Source: Candidatus Pelagibacter ubique HIMB058 (lineage in GTDB: Bacteria; Pseudomonadota; Alphaproteobacteria; Pelagibacterales; Pelagibacteraceae). From it: a DNA stretch of 64,000 nt. Positions 34,387 through 59,622 of the stretch are shown piece by piece. The stretch lies in NCBI GenBank assembly GCA_000419545.1, contig ATTF01000002.1, forward strand, positions 4,093 through 68,092, given 5' to 3'. Numbering within the stretch: position 1 is the stretch's first letter; each line of letters starts with the position of its first letter. Both the position numbers and the translations under genes were made by a program. The notes under the pieces are model-generated. The model searched no databases, was not told the DNA's origin, and saw only the letters and a list, made by a program, of their open reading frames with translations.

Positions 34387-35007
34387 ATGTATATTTATCA
34401 AATTATGAGTAATAGTTTTGGTTATATTGACATAATTTTATTAGGAATGATTGCAGGATTTATTATCTTGCGACTTAGAAGTATTTTGGGCAGAAAAACA
34501 GGCCATGAGTCAAAAGTTTACCCAAGTTTTGCAGAAGAAAAATTCAACATACCAAAAAAAGAAATAAAACCAGTTAAACAGAACCTTGAAACTTTAGAAG
34601 GTAAAGACAAAAAAGAATTTTTAAAAGGAGCAGAGATTGCTTACGAAACTATTCTTACAGCTTTTGCAAGTGGAGATACTAAAAAATTTAAAGGTCTTTT
34701 AACTGCAACAATGAGCAATAACTTTAAAAGTGCTATTGACGCAAGAAATAAAGAAAACATGAAATCTGAATTTACATTCATTGGAGTTAAAGAATCTTCA
34801 GTAGAAAAATATGAAAAAATTAAAGATGATCTATTTGCAACAGTAAAATTTGTAGCTGAAGTTATCTCTGTCAAAAAAGATCAAAATGATAAGATTATCG
34901 AAGGAAGCCCAGACAAAATAAAATTTGTTTCAGATGTTTGGAAATTTACAAAAAACATTAAAAATTCAAGTCCTAACTGGTATCTAGCTGAAATCGTTAG
35001 TCAGTGA
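34387..35007 (+). CDS. Tim44-like domain protein
   Basis: N-terminal TM, then a Tim44-like C-terminal domain ending DVWKFTKNIKNSSPNWYLAEI. An alternative start is ATG 34405. Confidence 0.7.
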   Translation: MYIYQIMSNSFGYIDIILLGMIAGFIILRLRSILGRKTGHESKVYPSFAEEKFNIPKKEIKPVKQNLETLEGKDKKEFLKGAEIAYETILTAFASGDTKKFKGLLTATMSNNFKSAIDARNKENMKSEFTFIGVKESSVEKYEKIKDDLFATVKFVAEVISVKKDQNDKIIEGSPDKIKFVSDVWKFTKNIKNSSPNWYLAEIVSQ

Positions 35008-35420
35008 TTAAAAAAAAAGACCTTTCAAATGAAGATAGCGAAGTATGGCAATCTTATATTAAAAACCCCACTGACGTTTATGATAAAGACTTAGGAAAGA
35101 AATCAATAAACAGAAAAGAAAGATTCAAATTTGATCTTCACGGCTACACTTTGGATGAGGCAAATAAAAAAGTAAAAGAAATTATTATTTCTTGCTCTAA
35201 AAATAAATATAGAGAAATTTTATTAATAACTGGTAAAGGTTTACACTCAACGTCTGGTGAAGATACATATGTTTCGAATGATCTTAGTAAACTAAGGTAT
35301 TCAGTTCCTGATTTTATAAGCTCTGATGAAGAATTAAAAAATTATATTATTTCAATAGAAGAGGCTGAAAAAAAAGATGGAGGTGATGGAGCCATCCTTA
35401 TTAAGCTTAAGAATTTATAA
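35004..35420 (+). CDS. Smr-domain protein
   Basis: [11 protein letters not shown]...[10 protein letters not shown] are Smr motifs. The GTG start overlaps the upstream stop (GTGA). Confidence 0.75.
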
Positions 35421-57509: not shown

Positions 57510-57984
57510 CTTTTGTATTTGGATTTATCTCTTTAATAAGTCTTATTAAATTTATCTTTTTTATAGCTACACATCCTTCAGTTTTTTTATAATTATTCTT
57601 TGAGACATGAATAAATATAGCGCTACCTTTATTTTTTTTGATAGGACTCATATTGTAACTAAGGACTAAAATAATATCGTAGATGTTCTCTTTTCTATAA
57701 AGCTTCTCATGTTTATGAGCAAAAGGTAATTTAACAAGTTTATTATAATGTCTTGATTTAGGATCATTACACCAACCCATATTTTTTTTTATAACCTTTT
57801 TTTTTAATTTTGTTAAAATTTTAACTCTATCTTTTCTATATAAAATAAACTTTATTCTGAATTGACCACTTGGGGTAATTAAATCACCTTCTTTTCTTTT
57901 ATAGCCTATTCCCTTTTTACCTATTGCACATTTTATTTTTAGTTTATTATAAGTGAGATAATTTTTATTTATTAATATATGCAT
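57487..57984 (-). CDS. L,D-transpeptidase catalytic-domain (YkuD-like) family protein
   Basis: KEGDLITPSGQF and SAIFIHVSKNNYKKTEGCVAI match the H-x(n)-[ST]-x-GC active-site pattern. ATG 57984 is preferred over TTG 57987. Confidence 0.6.
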   Translation of the reverse strand: MHILINKNYLTYNKLKIKCAIGKKGIGYKRKEGDLITPSGQFRIKFILYRKDRVKILTKLKKKVIKKNMGWCNDPKSRHYNKLVKLPFAHKHEKLYRKENIYDIILVLSYNMSPIKKNKGSAIFIHVSKNNYKKTEGCVAIKKINLIRLIKEINPNTKVKISSQI

Positions 57985-58584
57985 CAAATAAGAGTTTTAA
58001 TTTTAGGACCTACTTCATTTACAACCACTTTAAATGAACTAAAACCTTTTTTAAAGTTCAATTCTGTGAAAGAAAAAAACCCTTCAGATTTTGAAGTTAT
58101 TTTATTTCATGAGGAAGCTTTAAAAGACAAAGATGACAATGAAATTATTGCCAATAGTAATTGTTTAAAAATTTACAGTTCAAATAATAAAAATTCATCT
58201 AATAATTTTGATGCTTTCCTAAAAATACCCTCATCCTTGAAAGAAATTAATATCACTATTGAAAATGTTGTAGCAAAAAAAGCATTTAGTAGAAATTCAT
58301 CAATAGAAATAAAAAAATATTTATTAAATAAAAATGAAAAAAAATTATCCAAAAATGAAAACGAGATTATCCTTACAGAGAAAGAAATACAGTTATTAGA
58401 ATTATTTTTAAATAGTAAAAAACCTATCACAAAAGATAAAATACTTTCATCTGTTTGGAACTATTCATCGAATGCTGATACTCATACTGTTGAGACTCAT
58501 ATTTATAGGTTAAGAAAAAAAATAAACGATAAATTTTCAGATGAAAACTTTATAGTTAACACCAAAGATGGTTATTCTTTGTGA
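57979..58584 (+). CDS. OmpR/PhoB-type winged-helix transcriptional regulator with a degenerate (apparently Asp-less) receiver-like N-terminal domain
   Basis: The C-terminus LTEKEIQLLELFLNSKKPITKDKILSSVWNYSSNADTHTVETHIYRLRKKI....I.T..GYSL is a Trans_reg_C signature. The N-terminus has a receiver-like beta pattern (RVLILG, VILFHEE, KIYSS, FLKIP) without the acidic residues. Confidence 0.65.
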   Translation: MHQIRVLILGPTSFTTTLNELKPFLKFNSVKEKNPSDFEVILFHEEALKDKDDNEIIANSNCLKIYSSNNKNSSNNFDAFLKIPSSLKEINITIENVVAKKAFSRNSSIEIKKYLLNKNEKKLSKNENEIILTEKEIQLLELFLNSKKPITKDKILSSVWNYSSNADTHTVETHIYRLRKKINDKFSDENFIVNTKDGYSL

Positions 58585-58700
58585 AGAAAAGAAACAAAAT
58601 TGCAAAAGATTTGTTTACAAGTAAGTATAGAAAAAGAATTGTTAAGCCTAAAAAGGGAAAGGGTAGCTTTAAAAGGAAAAAAAATAATTTACCGATTTAG
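58581..58700 (+). CDS. Small basic protein (39 codons) with an ArfA-like KKGKGS[F]xRK motif; candidate alternative ribosome-rescue factor
   Basis: GTG 58581 overlaps the regulator stop (GTGA). The product is VKKRNKIAKDLFTSKYRKRIVKPKKGKGSFKRKKNNLPI. An ungapped alignment to E. coli ArfA residues [32 protein letters not shown] (recalled from memory) gives 14/32 identities by hand. The ORF is too short for the supplied ORF track. Confidence 0.5.
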   Translation: MKKRNKIAKDLFTSKYRKRIVKPKKGKGSFKRKKNNLPI

Positions 58701-59622
58701 TCTTGCGCCAATAATTTGAATTATTTTTGATGACATATCAGTTCCAATTTCTAAACTTTCTTTAATTGATTTTTTATTAATTAAGCCATGTAAAAAACCA
58801 CCAGCAAATAAATCTCCTGCACCAGTTAAATCTTTGATTTTAAGATTTTTTTTTTGCAGAACATTCTGCAACTTCATTATTGTTAATTGCTACAGCGCCT
58901 TTAACTCCACGAGTAATAACAAGTAATTTGTTTATTTTTTTTGCAAAATCAATTACATCTTCAAATCTTTTAACGTCAATTAATGACATTATCTCTTGTT
59001 CATTTGCAAAAGTAATATCTAATTTATTTTTTACTAGATCTAAGAAATGAGGTTTATGCCTCTCTACACAAAACAGATCTGATAGTGACATAGCAACTTT
59101 ATTTGAATGATTAATTGCTTTTTCAAAAGCTTTTTTAGGTTCGCCTTCATCCCAAAGATATCCCTCTAAAAATAAGATTTCACTATTTTTGACAGCATTT
59201 TCATCAATATCATTTTCATTAATTTTTCCTGCTGTTCCAAGAAAAGTCACCATAGTTCTCTCAGAGTCAGGCGTTATTAATATCAAACATGTTCCAGTTG
59301 GAATTATTTCTTTCTTCTTGGAATAAAAATAAATTACATTTTCTTTTTTTAAACCTTCTTCGTATTTATTGCCCAGATCATCATCACTTACTTTTCCTAT
59401 GAAACCTGCTTTGTTTCCAAGCTGCGAGAGACCAACTATTGAGTTTGCTACAGAGCCACCTGAAACAGTTTCTTCAATTTTAAGTGTAGATAAAAGCTTC
59501 TTAAATTCCGCCTCATCTACTAGTTTCATTGTGCTTTTTGTTAAGTTGTTTTGTGTAATAAAGTTGTCATCAACTTTACAAATCACATCCACAATCGCGT
59601 TACCTATTCCTAAAATTTTCAT
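58689..59622 (-). pseudogene. PfkB-family carbohydrate/nucleoside kinase (adenosine-kinase-like), interrupted by a +1 shift in an A10 run (plus-strand T run 58846-58855)
   Basis: The 5' ORF (59622-58840) carries MKILGIGNAIVDV...SGGSVANS. The 3' ORF (58877-58689) carries the PfkB signature DLTGAGDLFAGGFLHGL. Removing one A joins them as ...AECSAKKNLKIKDLTGAGD.... Confidence 0.8.

Follow-up and report, generated by a model that had tools for sequence, protein, structure and literature searches.

The gene described here lies in a 64,000-nucleotide stretch of Candidatus Pelagibacter ubique HIMB058 (contig ATTF01000002.1; the whole stretch is called the window below), at positions 58581..58700 of the forward strand, where 39 codons run from a GTG start to a TAG stop. 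Our results show that this short open reading frame (ORF) is a gene under strong purifying selection, and by the family's own profile threshold its predicted product is a member of the ArfA family. We consider it probable that the SAR11 peptide acts as an ArfA-type ribosome rescue factor that depends on release factor 2 (RF2). Judged by its sequence, the peptide matches the ArfA profile but fails two features of the Escherichia coli paradigm, namely the N-terminal segment and expression from a messenger RNA (mRNA) that has no stop codon (non-stop mRNA).

The ORF translates as (V/M)KKRNKIAKDLFTSKYRKRIVKPKKGKGSFKRKKNNLPI, and the peptide in full is VKKRNKIAKDLFTSKYRKRIVKPKKGKGSFKRKKNNLPI (39 amino acids, aa), with a Lys+Arg content of 46%. 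Its start codon overlaps the TGA stop (58582-58584) of an upstream regulator gene in a GTGA junction (58581..58584, forward strand). Both the 39-codon frame from GTG 58581 and the overlap with the regulator stop had been proposed in an earlier sequence-only reading, and both were borne out by reading the window. A second GTGA coupling that had been pointed out at 35004 is also real (ORFs 34387..35007 and 35004..35420, sequence ...CAGTGATT...). The spacer had further been described as about 20% G+C, which did not hold, as the ORF itself measured 26.7% as compared to 29.9% for the window.

Conservation and family membership of the ORF

Relatives of the peptide are widespread in SAR11. When about 5.8 billion proteins were searched with the peptide plus one upstream codon, at least 2,000 matches were obtained, nearly all of them 35-50 aa long with a common core, and in a profile search the relatives fell into 495 clusters at 50% identity. 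When genomes were scanned, taking one for each GTDB species, a relative was found to be encoded in at least 456 species-level genomes, and the best 80 genome matches were all from Pelagibacteraceae/SAR11, in line with the SAR11-like host that had been guessed from the sequence.

Loci for comparison were gathered by two routes. The first set, collected through the peptide, held 81 loci (the window, one metagenome contig and 79 Pelagibacteraceae genome loci). The frame was intact in every one of them and the start codon was found at the same position throughout (ATG in 32, GTG in 24, TTG in 23 and CTG in 2), always overlapping the upstream stop as NTGA. The products were 35-43 aa long, most commonly 35 aa, and terminated at TAA (60 loci), TAG (18) or TGA (3). 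For the second and independent set, metagenome contigs were searched with the upstream regulator only, which gave 58 loci with enough downstream sequence and a regulator identity of 55% to 92%; an intact ORF and the NTGA overlap were present in all 58. Taken together, the 81 loci found via the peptide and the 58 found via the regulator all have an in-frame stop (139/139), and conservation of the frame in relatives, by which the sequence-only reading had proposed to judge the ORF, was seen by either route.

The substitution pattern pointed the same way. Over the 81 loci the ratio of non-synonymous to synonymous rates (dN/dS, codons 2-34) was 0.067, with proportions of synonymous (pS) and non-synonymous (pN) differences of 0.66 and 0.10 and synonymous sites near saturation, so that the changes are overwhelmingly synonymous. 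Column entropy summed over codon positions 1, 2 and 3 was 11.4, 7.5 and 32.2, respectively, and four to six synonymous codons occur at positions where Gly, Arg, Ala or Leu is invariant. In the alternative frames, including the +1 frame ORF 58600..58719 and antisense frames, dN/dS was above 1; the one exception was the antisense frame that shares the third positions of the ORF (dN/dS 0.23), an artefact to be expected. Opposite arfA in the window there was no antisense ORF.

The product was assigned to the ArfA family by several methods. It matched the Pfam ArfA profile (PF03889) with an E value of 2.1e-6 and 27.5 bits, above the gathering score of 25.5, with peptide residues 13-35 on profile positions 19-42 of 44, and no other family was matched in the Pfam scan at E <= 10. 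A precomputed PF03889 match is also present on almost all of the 120 closest database relatives. A phmmer search against all PDB chains gave ArfA chains only (e.g. 5MGP_w and 5MDV_6), aligned over residues 3-34. Comparison by hhalign of a profile of 20 SAR11 peptides with a profile of 12 enterobacterial ArfA sequences gave a probability of 94.5% and an E value of 8e-8; this canonical ArfA profile is narrow, since a search with E. coli ArfA gave only Enterobacteriaceae among the best 120. The alignment placed SAR11 residues 4-35 on E. coli residues 13-44, and over this region the peptide is homologous to E. coli ArfA (YhdL; structures 5MDV, 5MGP, 5U4I and 5H5U). As E. coli reference we used the translation of arfA from NC_000913.3, which agreed with the sequence quoted in the sequence-only reading; the 14/32 identities counted there by hand also hold, and the best local alignment has 15/31.

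Possibly, a chance reading frame in an AT-rich spacer could look like ArfA simply by being rich in Lys and Arg, and in favor of this the peptide is short, almost half of it is Lys or Arg, and it has no NCBIfam match. Composition-preserving shuffles were therefore compared with the peptide. The Smith-Waterman score against E. coli ArfA was 66, whereas 20,000 shuffles had a mean of 26, a standard deviation of 4.8 and a maximum of 60, so that none reached the observed score; likewise, none of 10 shuffled peptides matched Pfam ArfA, even at E <= 10. The shuffles thus do not align equally well, which the sequence-only reading had raised as a possible objection. With this, each of the refuting conditions named there (no significant ArfA match, a frame lost in relatives, no coding constraint, shuffles that do as well) had been checked, and none of them applied. 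Together with the low dN/dS, the use of all four Gly and six Arg codons at invariant positions and the frame kept in every one of the neighbor-selected loci, this refutes a chance origin, to which we assign practically no probability.

Counterparts of the E. coli ArfA functional regions

Structural roles have been described for three parts of E. coli ArfA, a helix, a strand that joins RF2 and a tail in the mRNA channel (PMC8012679), and each of them has a counterpart in the SAR11 peptide. Codons 6-15 (KIAKDLFTSK; 58596..58625, forward strand, as are all segments given here) align to the short helix of residues 15-24, which contacts the decoding centre in E. coli; A8, D10, L11 and K15 within this segment, and N5 just before it, are invariant in the 81 loci. 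Codons 16-21 (YRKRIV; 58626..58643) align to F25 and to the Q27-E30 strand that is added to the RF2 beta-sheet. F25, which packs against RF2, corresponds to the invariant Y16 (81/81), and R26 and R28, in the RF2-binding segment of residues 25-30, correspond to R17 (76/81) and R19 (81/81). The strand Q27-E30 itself is represented by K-R-[IV]-[IV], as positions 20-21 are always Val or Ile. Codons 22-35 (KPKKGKGSFKRKKN; 58644..58685) make up a basic tail that aligns to the E. coli tail filling the empty mRNA channel, and a similar channel role may be predicted for it. This tail holds the KKGKGS motif (58650-58667; K24, K25, G26, K27, G28 and S29), which is invariant in 81/81 loci with all four Gly codons in use and is followed by [FY]xRKK. 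The SAR11 tail is denser in Lys/Arg than that of E. coli ArfA. The remaining part (58686..58700) comprises a variable C-terminal end and the stop codon of the gene itself.

The KKGKGS[FY]xRK tail, the aromatic residue at F25, R26/R28 and the hydrophobic strand at 27-30 are thus common to E. coli ArfA and the SAR11 peptide. The two differ in length, as E. coli arfA encodes 72 aa, of which about 55 aa are active, and the SAR11 form is without the first ~9 residues of E. coli ArfA and everything beyond about residue 44-48. Roughly, the peptide would be equivalent to E. coli ArfA residues 10-44, with the RF2- and channel-binding cores kept and both ends trimmed. A variation of this architecture was observed in P0092, a 70-aa IMG metagenome protein, in which a complete unit is followed in tandem by a second N-terminal half (…NPIAKDLRTPKYKQRSVKSKK…) without KGKGS.

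If the SAR11 peptide is an RF2-dependent rescue factor, its Lys/Arg-rich tail KPKKGKGSFKRKK would bind the 30S mRNA entry channel only if this is empty, i.e. when the ribosome has come to a 3' end without a stop codon. The counterpart of F25 would pack against RF2, and the short N-terminal helix (NKIAKDLF) would help RF2 to open, so that its GGQ loop can hydrolyse the peptidyl-tRNA.

Several observations weigh against this assignment of function. The Pfam match covers residues 13-35 only, and the NCBIfam scan of the peptide returned no family. The helix is preceded by only 5 residues, as compared to 14 in E. coli ArfA, where activation brings order to this N-terminus along with the switch loop of RF2 (PMC8012679). 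The counterpart of E. coli A18 varies between K, L, I and V, and in E. coli the A18T exchange abolishes activity (PMC8012679). There is no K-H motif and no His in the tail. Aligned to E. coli ArfA, the commonest form of 35 aa reaches no further than K44. Past the equivalent of residue 40 the tail has only 4-8 residues, or 4-12 over the whole set of loci, and truncation to 40 residues makes E. coli ArfA inactive (PMC8012679); however, as noted above, the SAR11 tail is denser in Lys/Arg. In addition, arfA may be produced from truncated transcripts, as discussed below.

Some of these features could mean that the SAR11 peptide, while truly homologous to ArfA and able to bind ribosomes, acts in another way: it might recruit both RF1 and RF2, or it might modulate translation or idle ribosomes constitutively and not serve as a backup. 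ArfT of Francisella tularensis and BrfA of Bacillus subtilis are likewise tiny basic peptides, and they bring a class I release factor to non-stop ribosomes (PMC8012679), a task of the same kind as the one proposed for the SAR11 peptide. ArfT works with both RF1 and RF2, and BrfA, like E. coli ArfA, is made from non-stop mRNA (PMC8012679). These peptides resemble the SAR11 peptide in size and charge, but no sequence relationship was found, since the Pfam scan at E <= 10 gave ArfA only and no match to ArfT or KGG-repeat families. A modified action would agree with the shortened N-terminus, the variable A18 position and the missing K-H motif, with the absence of tmRNA-linked non-stop control, with the tight fusion of arfA to the regulator gene in all loci, and with the relatives in alphaproteobacterial phages, which suggest a use beyond a backup role in the host. 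However, the residues kept invariant are the same as those that contact RF2 in E. coli (the F25 aromatic and the strand 27-30 with R26/R28), and ArfA alone is matched in Pfam. We therefore regard a modified action as unlikely, and RF2-dependent rescue of the ArfA type as the probable function.

Stop codon, hairpin and translational coupling

In E. coli, an internal hairpin of arfA is cut by RNase III or terminates transcription, which gives a non-stop mRNA whose product is tagged and removed by transfer-messenger RNA (tmRNA) (PMC8012679). Unlike E. coli arfA, the SAR11 gene ends at a stop codon of its own and is free of RNase III or terminator hairpins; its start codon is fused to the upstream stop, and its host is an alphaproteobacterium. 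The presence of a stop codon had been noted for the window in the sequence-only reading, and the 139 loci show that it is general. Hairpins were analyzed by sliding 60-nt folds, compared with shuffles. In the E. coli arfA control the best hairpin had -28.8 kcal/mol at nucleotides 150-210 (z -4.45), and 0/100 shuffles matched it. In 80 SAR11 loci (ORF plus 60 nt) the mean was -7.0 kcal/mol with a mean z of +0.68, and no locus had a z below -2. The arfA region of the window folded no better than its shuffles (z +1.18), and no terminator-like site was found in or just after the ORF; the only inverted repeat there was a pair of pure A/T 10-mers (58680-58689 and 58719-58728). As the stop codon is kept in all loci and no hairpin was detected, the E. 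coli-type non-stop device is absent from SAR11 arfA. With its own stop and without an internal hairpin or terminator, SAR11 arfA is probably not made from non-stop mRNA, nor switched off by tmRNA tagging as E. coli ArfA is.

Instead, we propose that arfA translation is coupled to the regulator's stop codon, either through the NTGA overlap or where TAA is followed directly by ATG. The latter arrangement, without any spacer, was seen in one SAR11 clade in which the peptide starts with MGQRNPIAK (L224 3990-4003, also L225 and L226), and this clade retains the gene order around arfA. We infer that the TTG and CTG starts would fit re-initiation by the terminating ribosome.

A hidden form of non-stop control should be considered as well. 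Runs of 7-10 A (Lys AAA codons) stand just before the stop in 58/81 loci, in the window at 58671-58688. In E. coli, A runs can make ribosomes slide. A bona fide ArfA could thus still arise from non-stop mRNA and be repressed by tmRNA in the absence of a hairpin, by sliding on the A-rich 3' end or from heterogeneous 3' ends that the convergent pfkB gene gives rise to. In support of this, the 3' ends of arfA and pfkB adjoin or overlap, which leaves no room for a terminator, and non-stop control has been described as conserved among proteobacterial ArfA genes (PMC8012679). On the other hand, an in-frame stop follows directly after the conserved core in 139/139 loci, a significant hairpin was found in 0/80, and nothing in SAR11 corresponds to the hydrophobic, destabilising extension at the C-terminus of full-length E. 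coli ArfA. A hidden non-stop control thus appears improbable to us. SAR11 ArfA would be a low-level backup to trans-translation, constitutive or regulator-linked, in a lineage that has been surveyed as lacking ArfB.

Genomic setting, phage relatives and SAR11 ribosome rescue

The gene upstream of arfA and in the same orientation (57979..58584, forward strand) encodes an OmpR/PhoB-type winged-helix regulator of 201 aa with a Pfam Trans_reg_C match at residues 128-196. With its N-terminal 131 aa no Response_reg match was obtained, although E values up to 10 were admitted. By eye alone, the place where a receiver would have its phospho-accepting Asp seems to be taken by a His ('EVILFHEE'). The same regulator is the neighbor in L001 and in L224-L226. 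On the other side, a PfkB-family kinase gene (58689..59622, reverse strand) is convergent with arfA, and their 3' ends overlap by 12 nt. In the window a frameshift near 58846-58857, at a homopolymer of ~10 bases, breaks this gene into ORFs of 260 aa and 62 aa; Pfam PfkB positions 32-245 lie within 58840..59622, and 58689..58877 holds positions 249-296. Either a homopolymer sequencing error or a recent pseudogene accounts for the split; in relatives the pfkB frame is intact in about 75/80, with 301-362 codons, and pfkB abuts or overlaps arfA tail to tail there too. The order porin, TMP-TENI, YggS-like, YkuD, regulator and arfA, with pfkB, nth, dapB, dnaJ and dnaK on the opposite strand, is kept. 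The context of arfA is thus chromosomal housekeeping and not prophage. The layout in E. coli is alike, as arfA follows the transcription factor gene zntR and is convergent with mscL, with a 4-nt overlap (L223 6025-7131; NC_000913.3 3438024-3439130), but this is probably a coincidence.

Relatives were also encoded on 143 IMG/VR contigs, with the core NPIAK[DE][LV]RTPKYKxR[VI]VKPKKGKGSFKR and 60-85% identity to the SAR11 peptide. They differ from SAR11 arfA by variable N-terminal extensions and acidic C-terminal tails and by having no linkage to the regulator. One such ORF (L119 4971-5132) lies between T4-type clamp-loader genes and adjoins regA and a DNA polymerase gene. By tblastn, matches were found in the cultured Pelagibacter phage HTVC027P, Roseobacter phage CRP-212 and Caulobacter phage Cr30, where the ORFs are recorded as 'hypothetical protein' or, in CRP-212 and Cr30, are unannotated; MN698241.1 15786-15932 is an example of an ArfA-like phage ORF. 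These matches were obtained with a longer phage version; tblastn of cultured phages with the SAR11 peptide or the T4-like phage version gave no match, probably as a result of the low-complexity filter. In the literature, gp30 of Pelagibacter phage HTVC027P (PMC12753301) and g10 of Citromicrobium phage RXM (PMC8953757) have already been called ArfA. The hosts of all the named cultured phages are alphaproteobacteria. On a 66-kb Logan contig (SRR13198928_11736; L228 6001-6189), a 62-aa ORF of the ArfA family overlaps the end of a CCA-adding-enzyme gene by 4 nt, and acyl-carrier-like, Thg1 (tRNA-His guanylyltransferase) and macro-domain genes come next; this contig is mostly without Pfam matches, and the module looks like phage tRNA and translation maintenance.

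Within the window no gene for tmRNA, smpB, arfB or prfB was found; the sole RNA gene is one tRNA-Gly. ORFs of the window that contain GGQ were examined as candidate release or rescue factors and rejected, as they encode unrelated proteins. TGA is the stop codon of 13/60 window ORFs of at least 150 aa. In Ca. P. ubique HTCC1062 both RF2 (SAR11_0733) and smpB (SAR11_1061) are present and transcribed, and the original annotation of this strain is without arfA (PMC12753301 supplement). Since HTCC1062 has RF2, an RF2-dependent backup would have its partner, and it would close a gap that SAR11 has according to the literature.

According to a review, ArfA is confined to a subset of beta- and gammaproteobacteria (PMC8012679). 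A 2024 survey of 15,259 genomes reported ArfA in 0/2,376 alphaproteobacteria and scored Pelagibacter as having trans-translation only (PMC11633108), with HTCC1040 listed as positive for smpB and ssrA and negative for arfB, arfA and rqcH (PMC11633108 Table S1). The survey was made with nhmmer DNA profiles (PMC11633108), and it probably missed SAR11 arfA because profiles at the DNA level would miss a 105-nt AT-rich gene. The databases already hold the name. NCBI nr has 'alternative ribosome rescue factor ArfA [Pelagibacteraceae bacterium]' for 35-aa cluster mates (MDA9078233.1 and MDC0409113.1) and 'ribosome alternative rescue factor ArfA [Pelagibacterales bacterium SAG-MED28]' for MBD1146598.1, and near-identical Pelagibacteraceae peptides are labelled ArfA in IMG too; a cluster look-up for divergent family members gave no names. 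In the searchable literature there is no mention of a chromosomal ArfA in SAR11. The view in the sequence-only reading that ArfA would be unexpected in a SAR11-like genome is thus right for the published literature and wrong for the databases. The ArfA identity is not new at the annotation level, whereas the short architecture, the own stop codon, the missing hairpin and the fixed coupling to the regulator are undescribed in the searchable literature.

A more complete picture can be drawn, to which we give about an even chance of being correct. SAR11 would have an ArfA stripped to a core of 35-40 residues, made constitutively by ribosomes that re-initiate where an OmpR-type regulator without a receiver ends, from a frame with a normal stop, and carrying out RF2-dependent rescue without tmRNA feedback, and the same minimal module would circulate in alphaproteobacterial phages (pelagiphages, roseophages and phages of Caulobacter and Citromicrobium). 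If this is true, phages may use the ArfA module to keep ribosomes free during infection.

The presence of arfA in at least 456 species-level SAR11 genomes means that the published distribution of ArfA, and the score of Pelagibacter as having no backup, are incomplete. This also bears on the development of trans-translation inhibitors, which presumes a narrow distribution of backup systems. A natural ArfA of 35 aa would show how small a sequence can be and still recruit RF2, and if non-stop control is lacking, tmRNA feedback would not be an intrinsic property of the ArfA family. If the complete picture is correct, the most abundant bacterial lineage of the ocean would have a rescue system that dispenses with tmRNA feedback, which is regarded as a hallmark of ArfA.

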